Below are positions 31,367 through 49,338 of a stretch of DNA of 64,000 bases, in pieces. The DNA is from a phage. The notes under the pieces were generated by a model that worked only from the letters and a program-made list of their open reading frames with translations, was not told where the DNA came from and made no database searches. Each line of letters opens with the position of its first letter. Positions within the stretch are counted from its first letter, which is position 1. Position numbers and translations under genes: made by a program. The stretch lies in sequence record PZ445530.1; one strand, 5' to 3'.

Positions 31367-31762
31367 TTACTGAAACAGTGCGGATAAATTACCTTCTGGT
31401 GGGAACTTATCTGCCAAAAACGGTGTTAGCACAGTAGCCTTCTGAAGATCTGGGGTCCACTCGTTGTTCAGAACATCCCAGTAGTACGCAATGTTGCTGT
31501 GTGGGTGCCGCATTACGAACTTTTTCCCTTCGTAGTCATCTGAAACCTCTACAGAAGAAATAACAACAGAATCTTCAAGGGTTTCTTCATAGAAAGATCC
31601 ACCTTCAAATTTCCAACGAGATGCAAGAGCCCCTGCCTTGAACGCTGCAGATAACGGACTGTCGGCAAGAACATACATTTCTTGCACTCTGTCGCTGCGA
31701 TCTTTGCTTCTTACGTTGTATACAGTATCTGAGCTATACTCAACACGGTATAGGCTTACCAT
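31367..31762 (-). CDS. hypothetical protein
   Basis: 131-aa ORF. Confidence 0.5.
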   Translation of the reverse strand: MVSLYRVEYSSDTVYNVRSKDRSDRVQEMYVLADSPLSAAFKAGALASRWKFEGGSFYEETLEDSVVISSVEVSDDYEGKKFVMRHPHSNIAYYWDVLNNEWTPDLQKATVLTPFLADKFPPEGNLSALFQ

Positions 31763-32121
31763 TACCGCACCTCCTCAATAACTTCCACATCTGAACCTAC
31801 CGCAAATGCAAAAGGACAGGTTTCATGAAAGATATCCGGATCGCCGCCAAGCTTGCTAACAATTTCTCCACCACTAATAAACACAAGCTCACCGATATTC
31901 ATCAGATTGCTGAAATAGTACCCATAATGATTAAAGAATGCAGCAGGGTCAGGTAGACTAGTAGCCTCAAGCACTACATCGGTTGAGGTTACTTTCTTAT
32001 CATAACCTCTCGCCTTTTGAGATGCAAGATCTGCAGAATCCTCAGGAGACCGGAGATGCACAGGAATTGTTTCACCAATAAAGCGTACTTTCATATTATC
32101 ACCCAACAACCATAGCTTCAA
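31762..32121 (-). CDS. hypothetical protein (ends ...VEVIEEVR)
   Basis: 119-aa ORF. Confidence 0.5.
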   Translation of the reverse strand: MKLWLLGDNMKVRFIGETIPVHLRSPEDSADLASQKARGYDKKVTSTDVVLEATSLPDPAAFFNHYGYYFSNLMNIGELVFISGGEIVSKLGGDPDIFHETCPFAFAVGSDVEVIEEVR

Positions 32122-32362
32122 AAGGAGTCATGAACGAATAAACGGCATCATCATCTGCTTCAGGGAATGCTCCCAAAGACTTCATGTCTGAGCCCTTGAC
32201 AAATACAAGGTTTTGATCAAAAGCTTCTTGGGGGTCAATCCGATACATATTTCGTAGAATATCGCTTACCTCCTCATCAAGAGGTGAGTATGCTGTGCAC
32301 GTTTTTCCGATCAAGCTTTGAGAATCAGGGTAGCCACCTGAAGTTTTAAAATAAACAATCAT
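32099..32362 (-). CDS. hypothetical protein
   Basis: 87-aa ORF. Confidence 0.45.
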   Translation of the reverse strand: MIVYFKTSGGYPDSQSLIGKTCTAYSPLDEEVSDILRNMYRIDPQEAFDQNLVFVKGSDMKSLGAFPEADDDAVYSFMTPFEAMVVG

Positions 32363-32453
32363 ATAGTATCACCTCTGGTAAGAGATTGGGATTCCTTTCC
32401 CATAAATAATTACAAATCTTCCTTAGCGAGGAAGTATGCTAATCCAAGCAGGA

Positions 32454-32723
32454 TTATTCCTCTACAATCTCATACACATCAGGAGTTACAATCAACTCTT
32501 CTCCGTTACCCGGTGCAACAAACACCACCAAGCCTTCAGGTGTGTGCTTTTTAGCCATCTCGATAACATCTTCTCGCAGAGCTGGCTCCATCAGATCAAA
32601 GCCTTCACCCAGGGCATCACGAACCACCTTCATATAGTCCACTGGTTGTGCTTCAACAATCATGCCTTCAACCAGTCCACAGTTTTTGTCTGCCAGCTCA
32701 GTTTTGAATAATTTAATTTTCAT
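32454..32723 (-). CDS. small acidic protein (family member)
   Basis: MKIKLFK... start, ends ...PDVYEIVEE. Confidence 0.55.
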   Translation of the reverse strand: MKIKLFKTELADKNCGLVEGMIVEAQPVDYMKVVRDALGEGFDLMEPALREDVIEMAKKHTPEGLVVFVAPGNGEELIVTPDVYEIVEE

Positions 32724-32775
32724 TTAGAGGTCTCCTCAATTATTTGATATTAATAGCCGTAACCTAACACATTAA

Positions 32776-33030
32776 CTACAACTGCGATTGCAAACATAAT
32801 TTCAAAGCATGCCCATGGTAAAAATCTTTGTCCTTAGACAGTTTCTCATCTATATCTGCATCAACACATTCGTGATCCATAGCATTTTGCCTGAACGCAT
32901 CGGTTATGCCAATGCACGCCTTGCTCTCAAGACTGGTATATCCGATATCTTTTAATTCAGTTTCCCAAGTCCAGTACCCTATAAAAGCTAAAACAGCTAC
33001 CCACAGTAATAACGTTTTAATCTTTGGCAT
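32776..33030 (-). CDS. small secreted/membrane protein
   Basis: N-terminal hydrophobic LLLWVAVLAFIGYW. Confidence 0.45.
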   Translation of the reverse strand: MPKIKTLLLWVAVLAFIGYWTWETELKDIGYTSLESKACIGITDAFRQNAMDHECVDADIDEKLSKDKDFYHGHALKLCLQSQL

Positions 33031-33092
33031 TCTCTCTACCTCTTTCTTAGTTTATTTCACTATGGCACATCCTTTGTGCCATATCTCAACTA

Positions 33093-33563
33093 CTACTTAA
33101 ATAGTAGTTCAAAATAGTGCAAAATTAACAGAAGTTGAACTACACCTAGTGCAACGGCGAGTATGTTAATCTTAGAATCGAAAAACTTCTTAACTTTTAC
33201 TCTAAAAGGTTCCTTAATGTCCTTTACGATCCTATCTATAGATGACCTCATATCTCTGATTACCCTCCTGAACATTAAAGACGGATGCTCCCCCATCTCT
33301 GTAACGGAATCGAAAACATACTCTCTTCGGTCATAAGGGCCGCCAGCTCTGCGTATTAACCTCTCCACAGAGACCTCGAACGTCACACCTGTAACGTAAT
33401 CATCTATAACAAGTCGTGACGGGTCTTTACCTTTACTATCAAGAGGTATCAAAGTTATCTTTCCAGATTTTGTTAAAATTTCCCCTTTTTCAAGCAAGGT
33501 GTACCAATGCTCTCTGCCAAGACTGTTGAGGCACGTTTTTACATATTTAACAAACATCGTCAC
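33093..33563 (-). CDS. hypothetical protein
   Basis: 156-aa ORF with C-terminal hydrophobic segment. Confidence 0.5.
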   Translation of the reverse strand: MTMFVKYVKTCLNSLGREHWYTLLEKGEILTKSGKITLIPLDSKGKDPSRLVIDDYVTGVTFEVSVERLIRRAGGPYDRREYVFDSVTEMGEHPSLMFRRVIRDMRSSIDRIVKDIKEPFRVKVKKFFDSKINILAVALGVVQLLLILHYFELLFK

Positions 33564-33763
33564 CCCTCATCGCACGTCTGATATAACCACTCTATAAAAT
33601 CTTGATACCATTCGCCCTCTGAGCGCTCCGTAGGCCAATAATCTTCACCCTCTCGTGCATTAAAATCTGAGTATTCAACTTTCCACTCCTTTACCAGCTC
33701 GTGGAGAAGGTTTTCAGCCTGCTCTAAAGATTTATTTTTTACCATTGCTGTCTCCTTTTTCAA
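33560..33763 (-). CDS. hypothetical protein
   Basis: 67-aa ORF. Confidence 0.45.
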   Translation of the reverse strand: MKKETAMVKNKSLEQAENLLHELVKEWKVEYSDFNAREGEDYWPTERSEGEWYQDFIEWLYQTCDEG

Positions 33764-33964
33764 GATAGTTATACATCAGAACTGCACCACCTAAGATGGC
33801 TACCAGTAACAATACCCCAGATAGCATCTCAATAAACATGGCTTGAAACACTGGAAGGCCTCCCTAAATTAACGCACCATTTTAAATACATGCTCTTTTC
33901 CCATAAAGGTGCCTGGCTAAGATCTGCGTAGAACGCAATCTCTTTAAGAACAGTATAAACAGTT

Positions 33965-34201
33965 TTAGGTGCGGTCTCCATCCCTACCCTCCTTTTTCTC
34001 CTTACGGATATTCTTGTAGTAATCAACCAGGCACATTATCACGATGAAGATAACAACAGGCCAAAAAGGTGCAGCAGTGATGATGGTGATAAAATCATCA
34101 AACTTCACCCTTCGTCTGGACACGATGCATACACCTGTCAAGAATACCGCTGTTATAACGGACATTACCAGGTAACCTATTAGCACAACATTTATACTCA
34201 T
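33965..34201 (-). CDS. small membrane protein
   Basis: two hydrophobic segments. Confidence 0.45.
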   Translation of the reverse strand: MSINVVLIGYLVMSVITAVFLTGVCIVSRRRVKFDDFITIITAAPFWPVVIFIVIMCLVDYYKNIRKEKKEGRDGDRT

Positions 34202-34231
34202 TGGTCCTCCCTTTGTAGGTTAAATTGTATA

Positions 34232-34765
34232 CTACAAATGGCAGCTGAGGGTGTCAAGAAAATTATCCCGTTCTTTCTCAGAGTTTTCATGGGTGTAGCT
34301 GAAAAACATATCGAGAATAACCTTATTGATATATTCCAGCTCCTCTGTGTTCAGATGCTTAGCAGGATCTACAATGACATCCCAAATATCATACAGACCC
34401 CACTCATGATACCCATAACGCCACTCAATTGTCAAGCTGAGCGGCAAATCTTTACCGTCACAAACAACCTTCCATCTACATATGTTGGTATCTGGTCGTA
34501 CCTGTGCACGGTACACCTGTACAAAATCCAATTTGAATTTGAGGTACTCGTCATACAATTTAAGCACAAAGCTCTCGATTTGTGGAGACACTTTTGCAGC
34601 AAACTGTGCGTATTTGTACTTGCACTGGATGATCTTTCTGCGTTTTGCAGTTAAATTTTTTGCCGCCAGTTGTTCTTCAGTATATCTCCACCTACGATCA
34701 ACAAACGCAACAGGGTCTTTGTCTCCATAGAGGTCTTCCCAGTTAATCAGAAGCATACCTGTCAC
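34232..34765 (-). CDS. hypothetical protein
   Basis: 177-aa ORF. Confidence 0.5.
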   Translation of the reverse strand: MTGMLLINWEDLYGDKDPVAFVDRRWRYTEEQLAAKNLTAKRRKIIQCKYKYAQFAAKVSPQIESFVLKLYDEYLKFKLDFVQVYRAQVRPDTNICRWKVVCDGKDLPLSLTIEWRYGYHEWGLYDIWDVIVDPAKHLNTEELEYINKVILDMFFSYTHENSEKERDNFLDTLSCHL

Positions 34766-34995
34766 TCCTCTACAACTTCAAGGCCTTTACCGCCTCGCTC
34801 TGGCAGATTACTTAAAGATAGGTAATACATATAATCAGGAGAGATCCTGCCAGACTCTGCACCTGCAGCTAGTAAATCCTTCCCTTTAACCAGGACAACA
34901 TTCTCGTTTGCAGATAGCCGTTTTGTTTCCACAATTTTACCAACACAGTCAACCAAGGAAGGGTACCCTAAATCTGTAAGAAATTTAACTTTCAT
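34762..34995 (-). CDS. small acidic protein (family member; ends ...GLEVVEE)
   Basis: MKVKF... start. Confidence 0.5.
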   Translation of the reverse strand: MKVKFLTDLGYPSLVDCVGKIVETKRLSANENVVLVKGKDLLAAGAESGRISPDYMYYLSLSNLPERGGKGLEVVEE

Positions 34996-35032
34996 GCTAC
35001 CTCCTACCTACCGTCCCTGGTAAGATAAATTA

Positions 35033-35431
35033 TTACTGAACAGAGCGCGGTGCTGGGAAGGATAACTCTTCTAAAGAGAAGATTTCATTTCCTACCACCC
35101 AAGTTGCTGGGTCATCTGGATCAACAGGTTGGATAATCATTACCTCATCCGCCTCGCACACACGTTTCCCACCCATAGTAGCGTCAGCCACTAACATACG
35201 CGGCTCTTCAGAAATGCACAGGTAGCCACCTCGGCCCACTGTTCCTTCCACGGGATCCTGCCCTTTGACCACAATGAATACCTTCTCTCCTGTGGCGATA
35301 TTACTTTTCACACTAACAGTTTGACCAACTTTAGATGTACCGATCTTGGTGGCTTCAAACATTAAATCCCGAATTACTGTTGCATAGTTGCCGGACACTT
35401 TCTTACCTTCTTTAGTAATCTCAATCTTCAT
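35033..35431 (-). CDS. hypothetical protein (MKIEI... start)
   Basis: 132-aa ORF. Confidence 0.5.
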   Translation of the reverse strand: MKIEITKEGKKVSGNYATVIRDLMFEATKIGTSKVGQTVSVKSNIATGEKVFIVVKGQDPVEGTVGRGGYLCISEEPRMLVADATMGGKRVCEADEVMIIQPVDPDDPATWVVGNEIFSLEELSFPAPRSVQ

Positions 35432-35703
35432 AATCTAGGCTCCTTAAATGAATCTATGTAATCAATTAAATCCCAAACATCGCGATGGGCTGTCAGAGGG
35501 TATACTTCTCCGAGAGGGATCATAGCAATAAGTCTATCAAAAACCCAGTCTGGACGCAACATTTTATGGTGATATTCCCACTCACCTTCCACAGATTTTT
35601 TCTGAGTGATCAGGATCTCTGTGTAGTGTTTCGCCTGTCTTGAGTAGATTGAAAATGACTTGTACATAAATGACCCCCTCTTGTTGAAAACAACAATACA
35701 CAA
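35428..35703 (-). CDS. hypothetical protein
   Basis: 91-aa ORF. Confidence 0.45.
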   Translation of the reverse strand: MCIVVFNKRGSFMYKSFSIYSRQAKHYTEILITQKKSVEGEWEYHHKMLRPDWVFDRLIAMIPLGEVYPLTAHRDVWDLIDYIDSFKEPRL

Positions 35704-36018
35704 CTACCAGGTTACTGTCAAGTAGGCAACCGTATTATTTTTCTCTGGGGAGATGCCAACAACATCTACCTGCAGACCTCCTGCCCTTAAATCTCCAACA
35801 ATGTGCGGGAAGTAATCTGAGAGATGCGAGGGTAGATTTATCGAAAATCCGCACCCCAGAAAGCCTGCTAACGCTTTATTTTGTATCTCCCCCACAATCG
35901 AATCATAAATGGAGTTAAGCTCGTCAGGGAGCGTTACAGGACGTTTTAGCGCTAACTGGTGTAATTTGTCCTTAGCACTCATTTTCATTTCAGGTCTACC
36001 TCTGGTGGTGCCAACCAC
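35704..36018 (-). CDS. hypothetical protein
   Basis: 104-aa ORF. Confidence 0.45.
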   Translation of the reverse strand: MVGTTRGRPEMKMSAKDKLHQLALKRPVTLPDELNSIYDSIVGEIQNKALAGFLGCGFSINLPSHLSDYFPHIVGDLRAGGLQVDVVGISPEKNNTVAYLTVTW

Positions 36019-36518
36019 ATAAATGGCGGCAAGCCTAAACGGTTTTTCTTATCCCACACAAAATATGCATATGCTTGCCCGTCAGTTCTGCCATTTGATT
36101 GAAAAGATGGACGCTTAGATATTGTGATCACAGAGGTAGGTGCATTATCAAGCCACCATTCAAATCTGGCTTTGCTTTCCAGAAAATTAAGACGCAAAAG
36201 CATAATAACTACGTCAGCATCTTTCAACGCCTTGTCTACAAACTCACGAGCCAAACTGTATGGTGGGTTGGTGATAATACAGTCAACATGGTTGTATTCT
36301 GTATTCAGATAGTCAACACCTTCTTGGATTTCTCCCCATGCAGATCCTAACGGCATACGGGAGTAGAACACACCTGAGGCACTATTCCTGCAAGGCTCTA
36401 AGTAGGTCCAGTCTTCTGGGAACGGAATAAGGTCATACAGCCCTTCTGCACACCACTCCGGTGTCACATACTCATCGTAAGCGTTACGTTGTTCATCAGG
36501 TTTTCTAGCACAAGTCAT
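35985..36518 (-). CDS. DNA methyltransferase (N6-adenine/N4-cytosine type, DPPY class)
   Basis: catalytic motif DCIITNPPY; upstream YVTPEW. Confidence 0.6.
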   Translation of the reverse strand: MTCARKPDEQRNAYDEYVTPEWCAEGLYDLIPFPEDWTYLEPCRNSASGVFYSRMPLGSAWGEIQEGVDYLNTEYNHVDCIITNPPYSLAREFVDKALKDADVVIMLLRLNFLESKARFEWWLDNAPTSVITISKRPSFQSNGRTDGQAYAYFVWDKKNRLGLPPFMWLAPPEVDLK

Positions 36519-36534
36519 GCAAATCTCCAGATCA

Positions 36535-36557
36535 TAAAAGCCCTCCGAAGAGGGCTT
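36535..36557 (-). terminator. hairpin terminator between ClpP-like and MTase genes
   Basis: AAAGCCCTC-TTCG-GAGGGCTTT followed by TTTTAT on minus strand. Confidence 0.45.
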
Positions 36558-36569
36558 TAGAATTAATGT

Positions 36570-37616
36570 TTAAGCTTCTTCGACAATTCCTGCACCCAGG
36601 ATTTTTTCATTGAGCTCTTTTGCTGTTTTAATAATATTGTCCACCAGACGCTTGCGAGTCTTATCTTTTACCTTAACCTCTTCACCGCCGTTCAGGGTTG
36701 TCTTCAATTGGGACAGAATGTCTTGAAGTTCAACGACAGAGAATCGCTGCAGATCTTCTGAGGTAATCTCACCTAAGGCAATCTTAATGGTCTCACCACT
36801 TTCCATCTGCAGATTTAGGAACACAGTGTGAACATCACCTTTCGAACCAACCGCTTTCGCAGATTCAACAGCATGAACTAGCTCATCTAAAGAGGTGCAC
36901 TGGTGAATCTCAGGAAGACCTGCTTCACCTAACACGCCTTCATCACCTTTTGCCAGAAGCTTTTTAGGTTTTTGTCCGTTCTGGATGCGCTGTATGTTAC
37001 CTTCATCCAGAATGATGGCTCCAGTTCGAGCTGCCAGCTCCTCTCCGTCCAACCACACTTCACCACCAGCTGTGATGGATGCGATCTCATCTTCTGTCAG
37101 CACCCCACCGTAGTATTTTTCGATCAGGCGTTCAAAACGTTTTTTCCAGTAGCTGACCTGAGTATTCATGTTCACACCGTTACCATAAGTGCCACCTTGA
37201 TAGTAGTGGAACATAAATTCTGTGTCCGGAGCCACAGTGCGTTCTTTACAACCCAGCCATAAGATTGTTCCCGCAGAGCAGCACATCCCTTCAGCATGTG
37301 CAACAACGCTTGCCTGAGACTCGCGGAATGCCTGCAGATAAGCCATTGCAATGTGCACGCAACCACCAGGGCTATTGATGATCACCCGAATGCTTTCTTC
37401 CGGCTGAGCCATACGGATCGTCTGCAGACGAGACATATGATCCTGCAGGTCTTCCAAATCGTCGATATAAAGAACGTGGTCAACAACAGGTGTTGGGTAG
37501 CTGTATGTTTCCATGATACCGCCCGGCATACCAAACATTTTATTACTCATAGGTTCGAAACCGTTCTGTTTTTCTTTCATGCCGTGTACCATGGTGCTGC
37601 GAGGTGTTAAATTCAT
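36570..37616 (-). CDS. ClpP-like serine peptidase (S14 family) with N- and C-terminal extensions
   Basis: INSPGGCV... GMCCSAGTIL ... FMFHYYQGG align with ClpP INSPGG / GQAASMGAFLL / MIHQPLGG. Confidence 0.6.
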   Translation of the reverse strand: MNLTPRSTMVHGMKEKQNGFEPMSNKMFGMPGGIMETYSYPTPVVDHVLYIDDLEDLQDHMSRLQTIRMAQPEESIRVIINSPGGCVHIAMAYLQAFRESQASVVAHAEGMCCSAGTILWLGCKERTVAPDTEFMFHYYQGGTYGNGVNMNTQVSYWKKRFERLIEKYYGGVLTEDEIASITAGGEVWLDGEELAARTGAIILDEGNIQRIQNGQKPKKLLAKGDEGVLGEAGLPEIHQCTSLDELVHAVESAKAVGSKGDVHTVFLNLQMESGETIKIALGEITSEDLQRFSVVELQDILSQLKTTLNGGEEVKVKDKTRKRLVDNIIKTAKELNEKILGAGIVEEA

Positions 37617-37676
37617 GAGAAATCCTTAATATTGGAAGTTGAAAGCTATTTATTTAAACCTGATTCACATTTACCT

Positions 37677-37988
37677 TTATTTAGCAATCACTATGGAATA
37701 CTTACGATTGTCAGAAGCATCACAACTCAATGATTGCCAGTCTACCACATACCACGTATCATTGTCAACAATTACTTTATCGCCTGTTCTGTAGCAAGTG
37801 CTGCTTTCAATAATTCGAGACTCGATAAAGAATCTGTGTCGGCGCTCACGTAGCAACGCTAAGTTAATTATATTACCACCGCTGTCCTTGGTCCACACAT
37901 TCTTGGATCCTTTATTTGCCAAAATTGTCTCGCCGTTATAGACAAACAGGCAGTATATTTTATTCAATCTCTCTTGTATTGTAGCCAT
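37677..37988 (-). CDS. hypothetical protein
   Basis: ATG with upstream minus-strand promoter TTGACA-17-TATTAT. Confidence 0.45.
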   Translation of the reverse strand: MATIQERLNKIYCLFVYNGETILANKGSKNVWTKDSGGNIINLALLRERRHRFFIESRIIESSTCYRTGDKVIVDNDTWYVVDWQSLSCDASDNRKYSIVIAK

Positions 37989-38089
37989 ACTGTCCTTCTC
38001 TTTGTTTTGTCCGATAATAATATCTAAAGCTTGCCTATTTGTCAACAACTGTTTTAGATATTTAAGGGTGGAATAACCACCCTTCTATA

Positions 38090-38878
38090 TTACTCGGAAA
38101 CAGGGGTCCAAATATGATTTGCACGATCCTCAATAAGATTGAGTGCGATCTGACGACCCAACCCGGAACGAACGACATCGTCTGGACTATCAAAGCTGAT
38201 CATTCCAACCTCAGGATCTGGATGACGAGTAAAGAAATCCGTCACCCATGCAAGTCCAGATTTACCAGGGATGTCACGTTGGCTATTATCCCCCATAATT
38301 ACAAGGGTGGCCTGATCAGAGATCCTTGTGATAATTGACAACATTTCTTCAGGGTTAGTTTGCTGTGCCTCGTCAATCAGGACAAAGCATCGCTCATCGA
38401 AACTACGACCACGAATGCTTTCAACTTCACAAATCTCGATACGGCTGTTCTGACCGTCTCCCAGCATTGCGGCAAAAGCACCTTTGCCAACACGGCGACA
38501 AATCGTGTCCATCATGCTTCGAAGATAGGGCCACAGTTTCTGCATTGCATTTCCAGGTTTAAATCCTGAAGTCTTCCCTGTCTGAACGTAAGGGCGTGCA
38601 ACAATGATCTTATCAATCTCGTTCTTACGCAGAAGATCACCTGCATATGCAGATGCCATGAATGTCTTACCGGATCCAAACACACCGTTTACAATAATAA
38701 TCTTACGTGACCCTAGATAATCAAGGTACTTTTGCTGCTTTTTATTCATTGGTCGGAGAGCTGGAGCGGTGTGCTCTCTTTCGTCAGCAAATTTCTCAGC
38801 AGCCTTACGCAGGCGATCAGATTTGCGAGCCTCTCTAGCTTCATCACGCATGCGTTTTGTTTCTTTAGCTCGACCCAT
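38090..38878 (-). CDS. phoH: PhoH-like ATPase
   Basis: Walker A GVFGSGKTF, Walker B FVLIDEAQ; PhoH-like overall pattern. Confidence 0.7.
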   Translation of the reverse strand: MGRAKETKRMRDEAREARKSDRLRKAAEKFADEREHTAPALRPMNKKQQKYLDYLGSRKIIIVNGVFGSGKTFMASAYAGDLLRKNEIDKIIVARPYVQTGKTSGFKPGNAMQKLWPYLRSMMDTICRRVGKGAFAAMLGDGQNSRIEICEVESIRGRSFDERCFVLIDEAQQTNPEEMLSIITRISDQATLVIMGDNSQRDIPGKSGLAWVTDFFTRHPDPEVGMISFDSPDDVVRSGLGRQIALNLIEDRANHIWTPVSE

Positions 38879-38916
38879 GTTGGGACTCCTTTCAGATTGA
38901 GATGTGCCAAGTACTT

Positions 38917-39267
38917 TTACTGCAACAGTTTTTCAATAGCCGCTTCCATGCTGCTTGCAACAGCCTGAACTCGGATATTCATCTCTTCTTGGTGGATCAG
39001 CTCCTTAAGCTCTTTAATGGTAAATTCTTTAGAGAAACCTTCCACCATAATCTTGTGCAAGGCTTCTTGCGTGTCTACTTGCAAGAACTTTTCCAGTTTG
39101 TTGGCAGAGGCTTCTAAATCAGCCCGAATACGAGGGTCATCTGTGCGATTCAGCATTAGGCGTAAGCCATCAAGATTAGTAGAAATAGCATCTGCATGTT
39201 GAGTAACTAACCGTGGCAAAATGAGATCTACAACCTTATTAGCCAAATCGATACGTTCTTGTGTCAC
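38917..39267 (-). CDS. hypothetical protein
   Basis: 116-aa ORF. Confidence 0.5.
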   Translation of the reverse strand: MTQERIDLANKVVDLILPRLVTQHADAISTNLDGLRLMLNRTDDPRIRADLEASANKLEKFLQVDTQEALHKIMVEGFSKEFTIKELKELIHQEEMNIRVQAVASSMEAAIEKLLQ

Positions 39268-39377
39268 TGTTGCACCCCCTCTTCATCTTCATGATGTTTC
39301 TTTTCACGCTTGTGTTTTTTCTTAAGCTCAAGCGCAATCTCTTTCTTGTACGCCTTCTTCAAGGCTTTTTTAGCCAT
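39264..39377 (-). CDS. small lysine-rich protein (37 aa)
   Basis: ATG after GGAGG SD; MAKKALKKAYKKEIALELKKKHKREKK...; stop overlaps next start. Confidence 0.3.
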   Translation of the reverse strand: MAKKALKKAYKKEIALELKKKHKREKKHHEDEEGVQQ

Positions 39378-39408
39378 TTGGCACCTCCTCTGCTTTCATT
39401 TTACGATA

Positions 39409-39438
39409 ATTATACCTATCTACACCAAGCTTTGTCAA
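39409..39438 (-). promoter_or_regulatory. sigma70 consensus promoter (minus strand)
   Basis: TTGACA-18nt-TATAAT read on minus strand. Confidence 0.5.
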
Positions 39439-39441
39439 CAA

Positions 39442-39915
39442 CTAGTCTACCTGAACCCAACCGCCTGCTACTTTTTTAAACATTCTTTGGTTATCGCTGC
39501 CTCGGAACGGTTTCTTGGTTGGTAAATCTTTTACATACTTACCGTCAATGATGATATCAGCCAGTTTAAGAACATCACTAGAGATATGGTCAAATGTGAA
39601 CCCAGTATATACAAGAATAGTTTTCTTGTCACCAAATTTTTCCTTAATTTTCTCCATCAGGCTAATAATACCTGGCTCATTATAGTATGCTAAGGGTTCT
39701 CCACCCAGCAGAGAGATACCGCACACAGACGGGTTATCCAGATCTGACAAGATTTTTTGCAAATCTTCTTCAGTGAACTCCCTCCCCTTATCTTTTGACC
39801 AAAATGCCTGATTAAAGCAACCAGGGCAAGCGTGTGGGCACCCAGATACCCACAAGGCAGTTCTAATACCTGGCCCTTCTGTGTAAGATACTTCTGTGTA
39901 TCCGACAATGTTCAT
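39442..39915 (-). CDS. nrdG: anaerobic ribonucleotide reductase activating protein (radical SAM)
   Basis: CPHACPGC (CxxxCxxC) cluster near N-terminus; adjacent to nrdD. Confidence 0.75.
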   Translation of the reverse strand: MNIVGYTEVSYTEGPGIRTALWVSGCPHACPGCFNQAFWSKDKGREFTEEDLQKILSDLDNPSVCGISLLGGEPLAYYNEPGIISLMEKIKEKFGDKKTILVYTGFTFDHISSDVLKLADIIIDGKYVKDLPTKKPFRGSDNQRMFKKVAGGWVQVD

Positions 39916-39944
39916 AGATACTCCGTATCACATTTAGGGCAATG

Positions 39945-40028
39945 TCAAATAAAATCGTCTAGTGCCTTGCACCAACGAAGATTGCAACGACAACCACACT
40001 TGCAAATTTTATAAATACCTGTAGACAT
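39945..40028 (-). CDS. cysteine-rich micro-protein (27 aa) between nrdD and nrdG
   Basis: MSTGIYKICKCGCRCNLRWCKALDDFI; GGAGG SD 6 nt upstream of ATG. Confidence 0.35.
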   Translation of the reverse strand: MSTGIYKICKCGCRCNLRWCKALDDFI

Positions 40029-40091
40029 ACTGTACCTCCTAGCCCACTGTGTGTCAATAATATGCCACATCCTTGTGGCTTTTGTCAAGTA

Positions 40092-42215
40092 TCAGCAACT
40101 ACAACTTCCATAGTGCTTAACTCGCTCGATAACTTCCGCTTGCTTACCTTTATTGTAAGGACGGGAGTTAGGACTGGAAAGGTATCCAGACACTCTTCGG
40201 ATCACTGAGATATATTGTTCATCGTGGCATCCGCACGCAGGGCAGCAGAACCCTTTAGCTGTTGCACTGAACTCACCAGAGAAACCACACTTGAGACATT
40301 TATCTACAGGTTGGTTAATACCAAAATACATAATGTGTTTATACCCGAAGTCAACAAGAGCCTCTAAAGCATCCAGGTTGTTTTTCAGGTTAGGTGTCTC
40401 TACGTATCCGATGTTGCCACCAGAGGAGATCATAGCAAAACCTTCCTCATACTCCCACTTATCAAAAGGAGAGCTATTTATCCATACTGGCTGATGGAAA
40501 CTGTTGGTGAGATATTCATGCTCGTGCTTCAACACTTCCGGATATTCACGATCCAGACAGGTTGCAGCTTTATAGCATAGACTCTCAGAAGGAGTGCCGT
40601 ACAAGCTAAACGCTAGTCTACTTTCCTTCTTGTATCGCTCACAAGCATCTCTCATGTGCTGAAGGATTCCAAGAGCTAAAGCCTTGTCACCCTCTCTACC
40701 CAAAATCTGACAGGTTTCATACACACCAATATACCCAATACTGATGGAAGCGTACCCGTCATAGAAGAGTTTATCAATACTCTCTTCAGGATCCAGGCGA
40801 GCAAGAGCTCCTTCACACCACATGATGGGGTTCTGCCCTGCCTTTGTTCCTTTTAGACGGTTAACCCTTACAAGGTGAGCCTCGTATGCAAGATCCAAGT
40901 ATTCGTCAAGAACTGCAAAGAAATCAACACCTTCCGTCTTAGCTTTTGCCGCAATCATTGGCAGGTTAAGGCTAACAACGCCTAAGTTAAATCTGCCAAG
41001 GTATTTCTCCTCGCCTGTTTCCAAGTCATTGTATTTGCTAAGAAAACTCCTGCAACCCATGCTAGTTACTTTGCCATCTGTCGAGCCTGTCACTTTTCTA
41101 TTTAGTGGTACAGATACGAAGTCAGGATAGATACGTTCTGCACAGCATTCCAGAGCTAATCGTTTCAAATCATAGTTAGGATCCCCAGGGTTCATGTTGA
41201 CACCCTCTTCCAGGAAGAACAGCACTTTAGGGAACACAGGTGTGATACGTTCTTCACCAAGACCCATTTTGTGGACTTTCAAGTAGTTTTTGGTAATCAT
41301 TCTACCAAAGACCGAGGTATCCAGCCCTAAACTTAATGTTATGAATGGAGTTTGCCCGTTGACAGAGGTTAACGTATTGATTTGATAGAGCAAAGTCTGC
41401 ATGCTGTCAAATACGTCTTTATCTGTCATTTGCATTGCAACAGTCTCAGCATCTGGCAACCAATGTTCCTGGCAAAATTTAAGGTTCTTCTCATAAGTTG
41501 CTTCAGCATATTGTGCCAGATAATGATCAATATGGCTCATAGTCTGACCACCATATTGAGCACTAGCTACCGCACTAGAGATTTGGCTAAGGATTGTTGT
41601 TGCAACCCCTATTGACTTCGGCTTACTGACATGGGCGTTACCAATGTTGAATCCGTTTTCCAACATATCTGGATAATTTACCAAACAACAGTTTGTTAAC
41701 GGACTGATCAAGTAGTCAAGATCATGCACATGGATGAATCCTTTATTGTGCTCTTCGGAGACACGGTCTGGCAGGATCTGTGTTGATGCAAGGTGTTTGC
41801 TAAGAATACCTGCAAGCAGGTCGCGATGAGTGTGTACATGATTAGTAGGCTTATTTGCGTTTTCTTTTGTAAATTCATCACAAGTTCGATCCAAGAAGCC
41901 ACTAATATCTGCAAGCAGTTTTCCACCTGCCTCTCTGTTATTATCTCTTGTCTGTCTATACTGGATGTATTCTCTGGCTGCACATTTTAAACCCATATCC
42001 ATAAGAGCATCTTCAACAAGGATATGGATATTTTTTACAGAGATCGTGCACTGGTCGGTTGGTAGATTGTTAGCAACAACTTCATTAACTGCACAAGCTA
42101 TCCGGTAAGCTTCTTCTTCAGTATGTCCAGACTCAAGTAAGGCGGACTCTGCCGCCTTGATCACCTTAATTCCGTTATAAAACTCTTCTCTACCGTCCCG
42201 TTTTACAACTTTCAC
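40092..42215 (-). CDS. nrdD: anaerobic ribonucleoside-triphosphate reductase (class III)
   Basis: C-terminal glycyl-radical motif RVSGYLS and Zn site CLKCG...CPACGC; 707 aa. Confidence 0.85.
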   Translation of the reverse strand: MKVVKRDGREEFYNGIKVIKAAESALLESGHTEEEAYRIACAVNEVVANNLPTDQCTISVKNIHILVEDALMDMGLKCAAREYIQYRQTRDNNREAGGKLLADISGFLDRTCDEFTKENANKPTNHVHTHRDLLAGILSKHLASTQILPDRVSEEHNKGFIHVHDLDYLISPLTNCCLVNYPDMLENGFNIGNAHVSKPKSIGVATTILSQISSAVASAQYGGQTMSHIDHYLAQYAEATYEKNLKFCQEHWLPDAETVAMQMTDKDVFDSMQTLLYQINTLTSVNGQTPFITLSLGLDTSVFGRMITKNYLKVHKMGLGEERITPVFPKVLFFLEEGVNMNPGDPNYDLKRLALECCAERIYPDFVSVPLNRKVTGSTDGKVTSMGCRSFLSKYNDLETGEEKYLGRFNLGVVSLNLPMIAAKAKTEGVDFFAVLDEYLDLAYEAHLVRVNRLKGTKAGQNPIMWCEGALARLDPEESIDKLFYDGYASISIGYIGVYETCQILGREGDKALALGILQHMRDACERYKKESRLAFSLYGTPSESLCYKAATCLDREYPEVLKHEHEYLTNSFHQPVWINSSPFDKWEYEEGFAMISSGGNIGYVETPNLKNNLDALEALVDFGYKHIMYFGINQPVDKCLKCGFSGEFSATAKGFCCPACGCHDEQYISVIRRVSGYLSSPNSRPYNKGKQAEVIERVKHYGSCSC

Positions 42216-42490
42216 TTTTTCTCTCCAAAACCATTCTTAACAAAAGAGATGAAATCGTCTGCACCGCCTATATGGACACTGTCAAGATCGCTTTCTAAGA
42301 AGATCTGCGGCAACGTTCTGGGGACGATTGGACTACACTTCTCAATAAGCTCTTCTTTTGTGTAGCCCTCGCCAAGTGTCTTATATACAAAAGGCAGACC
42401 TTTGCTGATTGCAAATTCTTTTGCTCTGACACAATGTGGGCAGTTATCCTTACCGTAAATGATGATGAAAAAAGATTTTTCGCAGCTCAT
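42212..42490 (-). CDS. glutaredoxin/NrdH-like redoxin
   Basis: CPHC active-site motif near N-terminus; located between nrdB and nrdD. Confidence 0.65.
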   Translation of the reverse strand: MSCEKSFFIIIYGKDNCPHCVRAKEFAISKGLPFVYKTLGEGYTKEELIEKCSPIVPRTLPQIFLESDLDSVHIGGADDFISFVKNGFGEKK

Positions 42491-42493
42491 ATA

Positions 42494-43582
42494 TTAAAAC
42501 TCCCAAATTTCTTCTTCAGCGTCGTTAACAGTTGTGTTGACGCGGTAGTCAGTGTTCGACATTTCTTGGTTCGCCGTCTGTTGCAATGAAGGTTTCATCC
42601 ACACCTGCATAAACGGTAGCGGGTCCTTTGTTGGCGGCACAAAGTCTTTGTCGATGTCGTAGTAATCATAAATCGGTGAGCAGTTATAGTCAACCCACTC
42701 TTTAAGCAACGGTGAGTTAAGACCTATAATCGCTCTTCCTTCGCTGAAAATATAGTCACTCCAGCCGTACTCTTTGGTTCGTACTTCATCAAGAATCTCT
42801 TTTAACTCCCCCTTTATCTCAAGGAAGCTTTTCTCCCATGCGGGATCATTAAGCAAGATATCAATGATGGCAAAATCACCTTTCGAATGTAGCATTTCGT
42901 CAAGCATGATTTTTTGAACAAGCTGCGCCACCTGAACAAAGATACCCTGTTCAGCTACTGCGAAAGTGCATGCAAAACTTGCAATAAACTCAATACTTTC
43001 CAGAGCTAAAAGTGCAAAAAGCGCTCTAAGAATGCATTTCCGCACAACATCTTCTTCAACACTAGAAGGATCCAGTCGGTATTTTGCACCAATAACCTCA
43101 AGCTCTTGCATGTATTTGACAATAACTCCGGATCTGCTCAGAACGTTTTGGTTTTCCTGAATCTCTTCTATAATCTCACGGGCATTAGGGAGGCATTGTC
43201 TAACAATCTCTGAGTAAGTTAGTGCGTGAAGAACTTCAATCTCTGACTGTTTCATCAATAGAGTGAAAAGCTCACTATTAGTGATGAATGGTGAAAAGAG
43301 GCAGATGATCGATCTTGCCGCAACGCTATCAGCCTCCCATTGCCACATCAAGGTCTGCACCATCACGTCATAAGTTGACTTTGAGCATGTTACAAAATCT
43401 GAAATAGATTGCGACAAATCCACTTCATCCTCTGCCCAATCTTGCTCTTTTTGTTTTTTGTATAGTTCAAACAGTTGTGGATATTTTTTGTTGATAGAGT
43501 CGTACATACCCATTTGCTGTCCCAGAAACAGCGGATAGTCACCAGTTTTATGAGCGGTGTTCTCAGCATTAAATACAGCCAT
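42494..43582 (-). CDS. nrdB: ribonucleotide reductase class I small (beta) subunit
   Basis: size and position next to nrdA; helical ferritin-like pattern; ATG at 43582 with GAGGT SD (track ORF extends to 43642). Confidence 0.7.
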   Translation of the reverse strand: MAVFNAENTAHKTGDYPLFLGQQMGMYDSINKKYPQLFELYKKQKEQDWAEDEVDLSQSISDFVTCSKSTYDVMVQTLMWQWEADSVAARSIICLFSPFITNSELFTLLMKQSEIEVLHALTYSEIVRQCLPNAREIIEEIQENQNVLSRSGVIVKYMQELEVIGAKYRLDPSSVEEDVVRKCILRALFALLALESIEFIASFACTFAVAEQGIFVQVAQLVQKIMLDEMLHSKGDFAIIDILLNDPAWEKSFLEIKGELKEILDEVRTKEYGWSDYIFSEGRAIIGLNSPLLKEWVDYNCSPIYDYYDIDKDFVPPTKDPLPFMQVWMKPSLQQTANQEMSNTDYRVNTTVNDAEEEIWEF

Positions 43583-43620
43583 TATTCTACCTCTAAAATG
43601 GGGCCGAAGCCCCTTTAAAA

Positions 43621-45936
43621 TTATAGTGCACAGCTTTCGCAATACGGATCTTCAACTGAACTATCTGCAATCAAAGGATAGTTCTTTCTGGTTTCATCTT
43701 CAGCCTGTTTCTTGGCATGAAGTTCCTCTGCCAAGGAGTCACCAGCACCAACCCTAGAGTTTAAATAATACCATGTCTTCATCCCGAATTTAGTGGCACG
43801 GATAAGGTACCCTAACTGCTCCTTCATTGAAATTTTACCATCTTTCAACTTGGTGTAGTCTATGTATAAATCCGCGCTGATTGCCTGACCTGTGAATTTT
43901 TGAATCACGGCATACATATCGATCATGTCGTTAGTATCAACGTCCCAAGCCGAGGTGTAATACTCTTTCAACTCATCATAGTCAGGAACGATAAACAGCA
44001 CCTGCCCTTGTGGCGACTTTTTAAAGATAATGTGCTCACGGACAGGATAAACCCCGTTAGTGGTGTTTGTTGCCAGCGAAGAGCTTTCATTAGGCATATA
44101 TGCTTCAAGAACGCTATTACGTAGCCCACCATTCTCAATGATTTCTTTACGTAACCCTTCCCAATCCTGTTTAAGAGAAGGATCTTTCACCACGCTATCG
44201 ACCTCTTTGTTATAGGTGTCGATTGGTAACCAACCTTCTGGATATTTTGTTTTATGCATCCACTCGCAGACACCACGCTCTTTTGCCAACCGTAAACTTG
44301 CCTTATGCAAGCTGTAGCTGTGAAGTTCTGCAAGATCGTGAACGAGCTGTTTACTTTCAGGAGACCCGTAAGTAACCTTGTGGCTGGCAATAAAATGTGC
44401 AACATTGGTAAGGCCAACCCCGATGGATCTGCGTTTTTTAACTGTGCTTTCCATATTTTCATACGGATATGTCATGATTTCCATAACATTGTCAATCATA
44501 AGCACCGTGTAGTATGCAACATCCTCATACTCCTCTGGAGTAACCCTTCCAGCTACAAGAGATGACAGGAAGCACAATGCAACCTCTCCATCATCAGCAT
44601 CGTACTTGAAGATATTACGCATATCTGAATAGCCTTTTGTCGGGAGGGCTATTTCTGCACACAGGTTACTTGAATAGATCACATCTTTAAAAGGTGTATG
44701 TCTATTCATCTCATCTGTCCAGTATACATACAGCCTTCCCACCTCAGTACGCTGCGTGATCAGTTCAACAGCAAGATCTCTGGCTCGGATCCATGTTTTA
44801 GGAATACTGTCATCTTTAGCAATACGCTCAACCTCTGCATCGAACTCCTCCATAGACATGGTGAAGATACCCTCATGCAGTTGAGGAGCGTGCTTATAAG
44901 AAACAAGCATCCAATCTAAATTCTTAGCCACACGGTTGATAAACGACCTATTAATACCGATGGAGTAGTCCATGGTGTTGATTCTTTTTGAAGCAACAGT
45001 CATAGGGTTTCTCAAACGGATTAGCTCATCAATCTGCGGGTCCAGTGCAAGGAATGATACTGTTGCAGAACCGCCACGTGATTGTTGTCTGTTCTCCTTA
45101 ACACCAGCATCAATACCTCGATAATATGGAATCTTACCCATATGTTTAATAGTGTTACCACGAACACCATCGCCTGCAGATCTTGAGGATAAGTAGTAGC
45201 CGATACCTGCTTGGTTAACCGTCATTGTGTACGCAACTTCACGTGCCACACCAATAGATTTTGCTGTATCGTCAGCTTTTATTACACAACAAGATGCATA
45301 CCCTGTCTTACCTGTGCGCAGCCCGTTTAAGTACGGTGTCGGGGCATTGATCTTTAAGTCGGACAGATAAGTGTATAATTTTACAACATCGTTGATACGA
45401 CGTTCTTTCGGCATATTCTTCATGACAGCCATTGCTATCCCCATAAACATCATCTGGGGAGATTCAAACAAGGTGTCTTTAAGAGTATCCTTGATCCCGT
45501 ATTTGTCGCGAAACTGTTTAAGGACTGCATAGCCATAACCGAGATCTTTACTGTGGTCAATAACAGCGTCTAAAGTGTTTAGCTCGGTAAAGCTATAACC
45601 CATATCCTCCCAATAACCTTTCTCAACCATGTCATTGTAAAATGATGGTAAGGAAGGGATCTTTGTAAACCCTCCAAAAGCCTCTTTATAGATCTGACCA
45701 ATAAGAACACGACCAGCCATACGGGAATGTGCTTCGTCTTTACGGCTAACACAAGAGTCTATAATAGCTTGGTTAACTTCTTTGGTTGTACATCCATCAT
45801 ACAACCGCTTGTAGGCATCCAGTGCAATATGTGACCAATTGCCGTTACCATCGTCACCGAAAATAGCTGCCTTATTTAAACGTTCTGGATCGAATGCTAC
45901 TTCACATCCGTTGCTTTTAATTACCTTGGTGATCAA
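43621..45936 (-). CDS. nrdA: ribonucleotide reductase class I large (alpha) subunit
   Basis: 771 aa; C-terminal redox cysteines ...CESCAL; gene order nrdA-nrdB. Confidence 0.8.
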   Translation of the reverse strand: MITKVIKSNGCEVAFDPERLNKAAIFGDDGNGNWSHIALDAYKRLYDGCTTKEVNQAIIDSCVSRKDEAHSRMAGRVLIGQIYKEAFGGFTKIPSLPSFYNDMVEKGYWEDMGYSFTELNTLDAVIDHSKDLGYGYAVLKQFRDKYGIKDTLKDTLFESPQMMFMGIAMAVMKNMPKERRINDVVKLYTYLSDLKINAPTPYLNGLRTGKTGYASCCVIKADDTAKSIGVAREVAYTMTVNQAGIGYYLSSRSAGDGVRGNTIKHMGKIPYYRGIDAGVKENRQQSRGGSATVSFLALDPQIDELIRLRNPMTVASKRINTMDYSIGINRSFINRVAKNLDWMLVSYKHAPQLHEGIFTMSMEEFDAEVERIAKDDSIPKTWIRARDLAVELITQRTEVGRLYVYWTDEMNRHTPFKDVIYSSNLCAEIALPTKGYSDMRNIFKYDADDGEVALCFLSSLVAGRVTPEEYEDVAYYTVLMIDNVMEIMTYPYENMESTVKKRRSIGVGLTNVAHFIASHKVTYGSPESKQLVHDLAELHSYSLHKASLRLAKERGVCEWMHKTKYPEGWLPIDTYNKEVDSVVKDPSLKQDWEGLRKEIIENGGLRNSVLEAYMPNESSSLATNTTNGVYPVREHIIFKKSPQGQVLFIVPDYDELKEYYTSAWDVDTNDMIDMYAVIQKFTGQAISADLYIDYTKLKDGKISMKEQLGYLIRATKFGMKTWYYLNSRVGAGDSLAEELHAKKQAEDETRKNYPLIADSSVEDPYCESCAL

Positions 45937-46241
45937 TTTGCTTCCTCCACTTCACTAACGTATTTATCAAGGCAGGTATCAGTATCTTGCTGGATAAAAG
46001 TATCCTCTTCTACAGAGATATTTATAATTTTACCTGTATACTCGTCATAATAGACATCATCATACATTTTAATATCGTTTGTCAGGCCATTGAACCAAAG
46101 CCAACCAACATACTCTGCCCGACTTGCAAAACCAAGATCCTTCCACTTGGAGTTATGACTCATCTTCACCACCTTAGCTTTCAATACCGAATAATTTTTC
46201 CAGGCGATGCAGATCTTCAAAATTGAAAGGTTCATCAACAA
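45933..46241 (-). CDS. hypothetical protein
   Basis: 102-aa ORF. Confidence 0.45.
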   Translation of the reverse strand: MLMNLSILKICIAWKNYSVLKAKVVKMSHNSKWKDLGFASRAEYVGWLWFNGLTNDIKMYDDVYYDEYTGKIINISVEEDTFIQQDTDTCLDKYVSEVEEAN

Positions 46242-46674
46242 TATGAATATCTTCAGCCTTTTCAGATTGTTTTGTATACTTTCTTACATTAACACGATCC
46301 TCTACAGGGATATCATACGGGAGATCTTGAACAAGCATTGCCTCACCAGGTGCTTTATCTACATCTAAAATATCTACACCGTTATACATTTGTGGGTATC
46401 TAAAGTCTGCACGCATGACACCAGCAAATACATCTGCCTTTCGATAATGTGTTGGCTTATTTTTGCATCGAACGTTTTTTCCACGAAGAACATCAATACT
46501 TTTTAAATCAAACCCTACGGCAAAGAGTGCAGCTCGGAGACCGTTTCGTGTGCGAACGTTAAACCCGGGGACGGTAGATAGAAAATCTAAAGTAACTGAA
46601 ATAAATGTCTTTTTAGGAATCATAACATTACTCATATCTGTCTCCATTTCTGGCTCACCAACAAAGTGAGCCAT
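46174..46674 (-). CDS. hypothetical protein
   Basis: 166-aa ORF. Confidence 0.5.
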   Translation of the reverse strand: MAHFVGEPEMETDMSNVMIPKKTFISVTLDFLSTVPGFNVRTRNGLRAALFAVGFDLKSIDVLRGKNVRCKNKPTHYRKADVFAGVMRADFRYPQMYNGVDILDVDKAPGEAMLVQDLPYDIPVEDRVNVRKYTKQSEKAEDIHIVDEPFNFEDLHRLEKLFGIES

Positions 46675-46733
46675 TATTATAGATTATCTAATACTATTAG
46701 TCAACACAAAAGTTACCTATCGCTGTGATAGGA

Positions 46734-47717
46734 TTAACCTTTCACGAAGTGGTTATTAAGCAGTTGTCTGTGCTGAACCCACCCACAAAAGTTGGCAGAC
46801 CAGAATTTACCATCACGGTCTTGATGGGTTACACCTTCCTGCCAAGTACTGATGTCTTGTGTGATTTCACATGAAGACAGGTAGTAGTTTAAACGTTCCA
46901 TTGCATTATCGTGATCCATAGGTGTTGCCTGGTGCTCGTAAGGGCTTGCATGAATACGATCCCCACCAATCAATTTTTTAGCAACACTATCTGCCTTTTC
47001 AAACGTGCTGTCAATATTTCGATAAGATACTTGTGCACAGCAACTAGCACTGATAGACAGAGCTTCTTTAGTATCGAGAATGCAAAGCTTTCCTTCTGTG
47101 TCACGTACAGCGTAGTTAAACTCTCCGTCCAAATAAACGTGCTCTACATATGGGGTGTGCCATTGACCCGGTTTAAGGATTTCAGGAGTGCTATTCTCAA
47201 GAGCCTCCCACATACAATTAGCTAACATCTGAATCGTAGGATCCGCATCGTGCCAGCAACGGAGGTGGAAAAAATTATTCCACTCGGTGCTTGTTACAAC
47301 TGTTTTCATGCGCTGGAACGGCTCCACTAAGCGGTTACATACTTGCTTATGGTAACCAGCAAGGGCGAACTTCTCTGCATGCCAAGCGGCGTTTTTTGCA
47401 GCTTCTTTCCAAAACTCTTCAGGAGTTAGCTCCATGTCAGTGTACTCTACACGGATCTTTTGATCGTGTTCCCCACCATCTTCCATTCCTCGCTTATTTA
47501 CACCGAAGCGAACTGGCATTGCCGGATTCTCCACAATCTGTTGCAGCATCTTGCCGACAGGTACTGCACGGGAAGACATGGCGTTTCTGCTGAACACTCG
47601 GTGCGTCATAAGCTCTGAGTGAATAATTCGAGGATACTCTAGTTCAAAAGTGGTGATACGCTTACCTTTCTCGGAAATGCTGTCAGCAATAATCTTTGCA
47701 GTGCACAGTTTTAGCAT
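46734..47717 (-). CDS. thyX: flavin-dependent thymidylate synthase (ThyX-like)
   Basis: ThyX-type motif ...HRVFSRNAMSSRAV (RHR-x7-S pattern, first residue T) and NRLVEPF. Confidence 0.6.
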   Translation of the reverse strand: MLKLCTAKIIADSISEKGKRITTFELEYPRIIHSELMTHRVFSRNAMSSRAVPVGKMLQQIVENPAMPVRFGVNKRGMEDGGEHDQKIRVEYTDMELTPEEFWKEAAKNAAWHAEKFALAGYHKQVCNRLVEPFQRMKTVVTSTEWNNFFHLRCWHDADPTIQMLANCMWEALENSTPEILKPGQWHTPYVEHVYLDGEFNYAVRDTEGKLCILDTKEALSISASCCAQVSYRNIDSTFEKADSVAKKLIGGDRIHASPYEHQATPMDHDNAMERLNYYLSSCEITQDISTWQEGVTHQDRDGKFWSANFCGWVQHRQLLNNHFVKG

Positions 47718-47917
47718 TATTTAGCTCTCCTTGTTTTAATTTTGGAAATTTCGTCTGGGTTTATGTTGGCCTTAAATGCAAGGTATCTGTTGAACATGTC
47801 AGAGCACATATCTTGGGTGATCCTAGAGGCATACACTAGCTTACCTCCTAGATCATACACCTCTAGCCAGTCACCATATCTGACTACAGGATCGCCACCT
47901 TTAGAACATCTGCCCAT
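47717..47917 (-). CDS. hypothetical protein
   Basis: 66-aa ORF. Confidence 0.4.
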   Translation of the reverse strand: MGRCSKGGDPVVRYGDWLEVYDLGGKLVYASRITQDMCSDMFNRYLAFKANINPDEISKIKTRRAK

Positions 47918-47918
47918 T

Positions 47919-49323: not shown

Positions 49324-49338
49324 TCATACTATGCGTTA

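Follow-up and report, generated by a model that had tools for sequence, protein, structure and literature searches.

Introduction

Small accessory proteins can be encoded alongside ribonucleotide reductase (RNR) genes. YfaE, a 2Fe-2S ferredoxin, is encoded together with the class Ia nrdAB genes in E. coli. Stand-alone zinc-finger proteins of very small size are known from prokaryotes as well, and the Haloferax HVO_0758 and HVO_2753 families comprise one-domain zinc-finger micro-proteins with C(P)XCG motifs. As for the protein discussed here, their roles are poorly known.

Both systems are relevant to a small Cys-rich reading frame found between nrdD and nrdG, the genes of the anaerobic class III RNR, in a 64,000-nucleotide stretch of phage DNA (PZ445530.1), the whole of which we call the window. 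We consider it probable that this frame is a nonsense allele of the accessory gene phrog_20137, that the intact protein is a zinc-ribbon binding module independent of the reductase, and that the copy in the window is inactive barring readthrough. The family to which this disrupted copy belongs is already catalogued, and its intact gene is listed in many records as a hypothetical protein. The new points are modest, and consist of a private nonsense allele, ATGA-junction slots common to two phage families, and several errors in public annotation.

Results

The micro-ORF and its surroundings

The window shares 99.8% identity with Escherichia phage JeffSchatz over 1 kb and 99.2% over 20 kb, and its sequence places it with the rV5-like Vequintavirus. 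About 120 related records match its nrdD-nrdG region, which contains the following features.

40092..42215, minus strand: nrdD, class III ribonucleotide reductase catalytic subunit, intact, 707 aa (Pfam NRDD, 1.7e-159)
40064..40079, minus strand: 6-bp hairpin GCCACAaggaTGTGGC followed by ATATTATT, just 3' of the nrdD stop, the one helix retained by the centroid fold
40029..40088, minus strand: two sigma-70-like sites, pattern matches of putative function
40044..40046, minus strand: in-frame TGG, six codons 5' of the micro-ORF ATG, the other difference from JeffSchatz in 1 kb
40035..40040, minus strand: AGGAGG Shine-Dalgarno sequence, with a 6-nt spacer (TACAGT) to the micro-ORF ATG
39945..40028, minus strand: ORF of 27 codons plus TGA, with the ATG at 40028-40026 and the product MSTGIYKICKCGCRCNLRWCKALDDFI
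39945..39947, minus strand: premature stop TGA, followed by C; TGG (Trp28) in 16 of the 16 related loci fetched
39912..39944, minus strand: in-frame 3' remnant HCPKCDTEYL with the ancestral TGA (39914-39912), containing the second knuckle CPKC
39442..39915, minus strand: nrdG, radical-SAM activase, intact, 157 aa (Pfam Fer4_12, 9.6e-43, and Radical_SAM)

The preliminary description of this DNA had placed the ORF between the two anaerobic RNR genes, and the Pfam matches to NRDD and to Fer4_12/Radical_SAM bear this out. NrdD displays the Pfam domains NRDD, Gly_radical and ATP-cone together with a C-terminal Cys4 zinc ribbon of its own, nrdG is preceded by its own Shine-Dalgarno sequence (GGAG, 39924-39921) at 5 nt from the ATG, and a glutaredoxin gene and nrdB are located farther upstream of nrdD. 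The same description had pointed to five Cys within 27 residues and to a strong Shine-Dalgarno sequence at good spacing. Both are indeed present, with the Cys at positions 9, 11, 13, 15 and 20 and AGGAGG (40040-40035) separated by 6 nt from the ATG. Across the related loci, this signal reads AGGAGG in the rV5-type and AAGGAG or AGGAG in other variants.

As many as 96 ORFs of at least 20 aa occur in the surrounding 6 kb, hence a 27-codon ORF is by itself no evidence of a gene. It is the cross-phage comparison that identifies the micro-ORF as a real gene, since the frame is kept in about 120 phage records and matches phrog_20137.

Of the two sigma-70-like sites, site 1 reads TTGACA-18-CATATT with an extended -10 TG (40088-40059) and site 2 reads TTGACA-17-TACAGT (40057-40029). 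Only site 1 could yield an mRNA containing both the Shine-Dalgarno sequence and the ATG of the micro-ORF. By pattern match, the hairpin at 40064..40079 appears terminator-like and lies within the spacer of a promoter-like site. Directly 3' of nrdG (39409-39438, minus strand), where promoter P118 is annotated in rV5, TTGACA-18-TATAAT matches the sigma-70 consensus perfectly. The ORF that follows it (39264-39377) encodes 37 aa, is Lys-rich and has been annotated in relatives.

Two further observations concern the records related to the window. Window positions 30000-50000 match JeffSchatz (MZ501082.1) 96161-119280 in two pieces, 20 kb against about 23.1 kb, indicating that within this interval the window is without about 3 kb present in its closest relative, possibly a mobile element. 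In addition, about 18-23 "Campylobacter phage" records (MG0656xx, e.g. MG065655.1 and MG065654.1) with Campylobacter jejuni as host are Vequintavirus genomes. They are 93-97% identical to E. coli phages across the nrdD-nrdG region, and on this similarity their host labels look doubtful.

A private stop at codon 28

In JeffSchatz, the hypothetical protein bas55_0180 (QXV81080.1) starts at the identical ATG behind an identical Shine-Dalgarno sequence, extends over 38 aa and ends with a stop that overlaps the nrdG ATG. Alignment of the window with JeffSchatz and Murica displays two single-base differences from JeffSchatz, one of which changes codon 28 from TGG to TGA. We fetched 16 related loci from GenBank phages, IMG/VR contigs, metagenome contigs and Logan/ENA contigs. 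All 16 have a longer frame of 36-54 aa with TGG at codon 28 and the ending ...IW[H/Y]CPxC[D/N/G][A/T]EYL. In 13 of them, the stop and the following gene's start codon overlap as ATGA, and the three rV5-type loci end in TAA. In the window, the ancestral TGA (39914-39912) overlaps the nrdG ATG (39915-39913) in the same ATGA arrangement.

By this alignment, the 27-aa ORF corresponds to the N-terminal 71% of a 38-aa protein, with the C-terminal CPKC knuckle lost. The TGA removes C30, C33 and EYL from the product, their codons persisting in frame downstream, and the window product keeps five of the seven invariant Cys, all of its 27 residues being identical to the JeffSchatz protein. The 27-aa micro-protein proposed in the preliminary description is therefore a real frame, yet comprises only codons 1-27 of a 38-codon gene that is cut short by a private TGA.

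The rarity of the allele was assessed with a 51-nt probe centred on the variable site, for which the 28-base megablast seed was forced to span the variable base. The TGA probe gave 0 matches in 50,697 phage records, against 69 for the TGG version, and none of the window products (27, 41 and 47 aa) turned up in an exact look-up against public assemblies. The TGA at 39947-39945 could be a sequencing error instead of a real allele.

The second difference from JeffSchatz lies upstream. The codon at 40044-40046 is TGG in the window, TGA in JeffSchatz, Murica and rV5, and CGA in one further locus (L015). The TGG opens the frame back to an ATG at 40070, without a good Shine-Dalgarno sequence. Both differences between the window and JeffSchatz in 1 kb are TGA/TGG switches in one reading frame, which is probably a coincidence, as the upstream site is polymorphic.

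Two other damaged alleles were encountered. In P0002 (phage vB_Eco_Alma, 61 aa), a frameshift after Ala35 replaces the conserved EYL end, and in P0006 (62 aa, on a 1.5-kb ENA contig), a deletion has joined codons 1-20 with the C-terminal portion of gp111. These alleles lend support to the dispensability of the micro-gene.

In E. coli K-12, UGA is decoded by near-cognate Trp-tRNATrp at a level of ~2% (37 C) to 4% (25 C) (PMC10570021). As the lost codon is a Trp codon, readthrough of the UGA would regenerate the wild-type protein, and the allele may be leaky, not null. Termination of the micro-gene 30 nt early should not abolish translation of nrdG, which has its own Shine-Dalgarno sequence.

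Conservation and distribution of the intact gene

The phrog_20137 profile (38 positions) matches the 27-mer with E=2.3e-20 over 1-27 and the repaired 38 aa with E=8.8e-31 over 1-38. The window product matches the family profile but is not a full-length product with seven Cys, and thus represents a disrupted member. A full-length copy was found by tblastn in 121 phage records, and exact 38-aa proteins are present on hundreds of public contigs, named either 'hypothetical protein' or 'ribonucleotide reductase'. The latter label on phrog_20137 is naming by neighbour and is unfounded. Conservation between nrdD and nrdG of related phages had been put forward earlier as a check on the micro-ORF. The frame is kept in these 121 records, but it is longer in all 16 loci and also occurs outside the nrdD-nrdG region.

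Variable columns at codon positions 1, 2 and 3 number 9, 3 and 19 (13 loci), and pairwise dN/dS amounts to 0.05-0.15, showing strong purifying selection on the amino-acid sequence. All seven Cys are invariant across variants, residue 29 alternates between His and Tyr, and the other two reading frames are interrupted by stops in many loci. The length variants of the family (36, 38, 41 and 53-54 aa) differ only in the N-terminus and in the first knuckle, which is CxC or CxxC.

A profile search of 1.84 billion representatives added two close variants and two spurious repeat proteins (P0009 and P0010), and no distant family was found among these representatives. A homologue search with a padded 43-aa query returned 6 clusters only, all close relatives. 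Scans with a degenerate DNA pattern picked up 3 loci from IMG/VR and 5 from metagenomes but none from 185,579 genomes of bacteria and archaea, pointing at a phage-only and narrowly distributed micro-gene.

Public annotation of the gene is uneven. The rV5 genome paper (PMC3606486) makes no mention of the ORF. In rV5, gp109 (L003 2806-3033) is annotated in a frame that has stops in 6 of 13 related loci, indicating that it is probably a wrong-frame call, and no annotation covers the 38-aa gene conserved in the other frame (L003 2871-2987). In Murica, a 'terminator' (L002 1923-1946) is annotated inside the conserved micro-gene.

Genomic settings of the micro-gene

In Vequintavirus, the module between nrdD and nrdG covers ~180 bp and includes the hairpin, the promoter-like sites, the Shine-Dalgarno sequence and the micro-gene. 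In Seunavirus SSE121 and in Phapecoctavirus phAPEC8, nrdD and nrdG share a 4-nt overlap without any micro-ORF between them, and this direct overlap in sister taxa indicates that the Vequintavirus module is an insertion into a formerly coupled pair. In rV5-type genomes, a TAA terminates the micro-gene, with gp110 and gp111 lying between it and nrdG. The SP6-like podovirus ACG-C91, like metagenomic contigs of Vectrevirus, has the micro-gene (83% aa identity) in a different setting, between the genes for a DUF3310 nucleotide kinase and an ATP-dependent DNA ligase. No nrdD or nrdG was present around the Vectrevirus micro-gene in the 8-10 kb examined. The Vectrevirus kinase/ligase junction is a polymorphic slot, of which four states were compared.

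LL11 (L020) 760-830: slot empty (...GATATGAATATC...)
ACG-C91 (L004) 3998-4108: slot filled with the Cys7 micro-gene
K1E (L019) 799-915: slot filled with an unrelated 38-aa CPNCG...CHSC zinc ribbon (AQY55013.1)
vB_EcoP_B (L021) 799-972: slot filled with a 57-aa protein, phrog_15259

Each of the Vectrevirus fillers starts at the would-be ligase ATG and ends overlapping the ligase ATG (ATGA). This comparison of loci shows the micro-gene to be an accessory gene with a mosaic distribution that has moved between two phage families.

The other fillers have weak relationships of their own. The K1E slot protein displays sub-threshold matches to the Lar family, the ECs_2282 zinc-binding family and GDCCVxC. 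Its homology to the Cys7 protein is unsupported, as hhalign aligned 8 columns only, with a probability of 33%. The vB_EcoP_B slot protein shows weak similarity to rV5 gp111 (pairwise E=6e-4).

The Vequintavirus nrdD-nrdG region is likewise an insertion hot spot. In O157 typing phage 14 (L005 1279-2439), nrdD is separated from the micro-gene by the gene for a GIY-YIG/T5orf172 homing endonuclease, which contains DUF723 and treble-clef repeats. In another locus (L006 4467-5261), an HNH/NUMOD1 endonuclease gene splits nrdD, and in rV5 (L003 3003-3375) the gp110/gp111 pair (phrog_3249) is inserted in the region.

Putative zinc-ribbon character of the protein

The conserved Cys pattern is C-x(1,2)-C-G-C-x-C-N-L-R-W-C-K-x-L-D-D-x-I-W-[H/Y]-C-P-x-C. 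Its layout (CxC/CxxC ... CPxC) resembles two zinc-ribbon knuckles with three further Cys, making metal binding by the full-length protein plausible. Searches of Pfam, NCBIfam and PDB sequences with the 38-mer gave no match above threshold, and no ferredoxin or rubredoxin model of Pfam or NCBIfam matched it. The nearest Pfam models were Zn_ribbon_NUD (E=0.003, 17.7 bits vs a cut-off of 24.8) and zf-LITAF (E=0.02, 15.5 bits vs a cut-off of 23.8), and the PDB sequence search returned only the eL43 knuckle IWHCPKCG (E=0.36).

An AF2 model built from a 4-sequence alignment is all-beta with four or five short strands, at a low-confidence mean pLDDT of 65.7. The top Foldseek matches of this model against the PDB are all zinc-ribbon proteins (eL43, Rpa12 and the Sec23 zinc finger), with a best E of 0.74. 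We take the model and these matches as weak zinc-ribbon support only. Since all zinc-ribbon models stay below threshold, a zinc ribbon is the best structural guess and not a demonstrated membership. Origin of the protein from the C-terminal zinc ribbon of NrdD was considered and rejected (BLASTP E=0.32 over 12 residues).

At the RNA level, the 216-nt region displays no unusual structure relative to shuffles (z = -0.48), and an Rfam search gave no relevant match at E<=1. An RNA element or riboswitch was rejected on these two results.

Discussion

If the frame is a nonsense allele of an accessory gene, as we propose, the intact protein would fold as a small Zn(Cys)4 zinc ribbon, built from an N-terminal CxC/CxxC and a C-terminal CPxC knuckle, and the three further Cys might hold a second metal or form disulfides. 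The protein would act alone, as a small module binding a host or phage macromolecule in the DNA-metabolism phase of infection. This binding role is a class assignment only, and would not make the protein part of the reductase. The window product, being without the second knuckle, is expected to be inactive. An exception would be the ~2-4% of E. coli K-12 ribosomes that insert Trp at UGA, which would restore the wild-type sequence. Because nrdG keeps its own Shine-Dalgarno sequence, expression of the reductase should change little.

A more specific form of this explanation is that the protein serves host takeover or anti-defence, for example as a zinc ribbon of the restriction-alleviation type carried on a mobile cassette. 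Movement of the micro-gene between unrelated coliphage families would be in line with such a role, as would the polymorphic slots, which also receive homing endonucleases and other small ORFs, and the sub-threshold Lar-family and ECs_2282 matches of the K1E slot ORF. However, the Cys7 protein has no match to Lar, to anti-defence or to any other named family, and no relationship between it and the K1E protein could be detected. The variable-slot setting suits an anti-defence or host-takeover role, with no support from the protein itself, and we regard this specific form as unlikely.

The Cys7 micro-gene might also be a self-contained, horizontally mobile cassette that lands exactly at start-codon junctions before genes of nucleotide or DNA metabolism (nrdG in myoviruses, ligase in podoviruses), its product being a metal-binding mini-protein with a specific target, e.g. 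a host defence or DNA-metabolism factor. We would call this decidedly unlikely, but if it were true, unrelated coliphages would be trading very small zinc-ribbon effectors from a common pool through these slots.

In the preliminary description, the product was suggested to be a metal-binding or redox accessory peptide for the glycyl-radical system. Metal binding remains plausible, considering the seven invariant Cys and their knuckle layout, but the comparison of loci speaks against the second half of the suggestion, a dedicated accessory of the class III reductase in the form of a small metal or redox peptide aiding NrdG or NrdD. Such a function would explain why the micro-gene lies between nrdD and nrdG in ~120 Vequintavirus records, why its stop overlaps the nrdG ATG and why the product is Cys-rich. 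Some records and the PHROG label even say 'ribonucleotide reductase', but this is the naming by neighbour noted above. Against it, the micro-gene is absent where nrdD and nrdG overlap in SSE121 and phAPEC8, lies in SP6-like phages beside the ligase gene, at a locus devoid of nrdDG, is separated from nrdG by gp110 and gp111 in rV5, and is broken in the window while nrdD and nrdG are intact. The protein shows no similarity to NrdD and matches no ferredoxin or rubredoxin model. Across lineages, the micro-gene neither follows nrdD/nrdG nor is missing where they are missing. Within Vequintavirus it is nearly universal and always adjoins nrdG or nrdD, so that a reductase link specific to this genus is formally possible. 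Taken over all loci compared, the micro-gene is not specific to the class III reductase and is not supported as its accessory; we judge a dedicated accessory very unlikely.

Highly improbable, too, is a regulatory leader, the other role suggested in the preliminary description. In a leader or uORF, translation would matter and not the product, for instance by translational coupling of the downstream gene. The ATGA stop/start overlap in both genomic settings is what coupling would predict, and every Vectrevirus slot filler likewise overlaps the ligase ATG. A leader should keep position and translation but not sequence, whereas dN/dS of 0.05-0.15, the codon-column counts and the seven invariant Cys indicate that the sequence itself is kept. 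This holds even in rV5-type genomes, where the TAA end uncouples the gene from nrdG. Moreover, the downstream genes have their own Shine-Dalgarno sequences, LL11 and the sister taxa do without any uORF, and there is neither an RNA structure signal (z = -0.48) nor an Rfam match. The regulatory leader was not borne out.

Programmed recoding of the in-frame TGA, as selenocysteine or by a phage suppressor tRNA, could draw on the frame staying intact for 10 codons beyond the TGA and on the UGA-C context, which is weak for termination. It is barely conceivable, and selenoprotein or programmed UGA recoding was rejected, because all relatives have TGG in place of a conserved UGA, no stable hairpin of SECIS type follows the TGA, the tRNAs are limited to Arg and Tyr in the window and to Arg, Tyr, Lys, Thr, Ile and Pro in JeffSchatz with no suppressor among them, and ordinary background readthrough (PMC10570021) explains enough.

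For annotation, the value of our preferred reading, a nonsense allele of phrog_20137, is that the ORF is recognized as a disrupted copy of a 38-aa gene and not as a new 27-aa peptide. The micro-gene is a clean example of a strongly selected micro-protein common to a myovirus and a podovirus genus, and if a target is found, it would join the few phage micro-proteins characterised so far. The natural nonsense allele and the near-identical JeffSchatz form a ready-made pair to test the importance of the gene.

Comparison with known systems

YfaE and the micro-protein are alike in being small, Cys-containing and encoded beside ribonucleotide reductase genes, but share no sequence or model similarity. 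Unlike an accessory of the YfaE type, the micro-gene accompanies nrdDG in one genus only, and is found elsewhere without nrdDG.

The HVO_0758 and HVO_2753 proteins resemble the micro-protein in being stand-alone, smaller than 60 aa and made up of hardly more than a Cys4 knuckle pair. The NCBIfam match to HVO_0758 (E=0.36) is far below cut-off, and host range and context differ.

With eL43/L37ae and the zinc-ribbon subunits of RNA polymerase, the micro-protein has in common two Cys knuckles ~16-20 residues apart, the second being [W/F]xCPxC, and the eL43 knuckle IWHCPKCG is a near residue-for-residue match. This likeness is not significant (E=0.36 for sequence, E>=0.74 for structure). In contrast to these zinc ribbons, the micro-protein has three extra invariant Cys (CxCxCxC-x4-C), and its first knuckle is mostly CxC, not CxxC.

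K1E AQY55013.1 shares with the micro-protein the slot, the length of 38 aa, the ATGA overlap with the ligase gene and a zinc-ribbon layout (CxxC...CxxC in K1E), with four Cys against the seven of the micro-protein.
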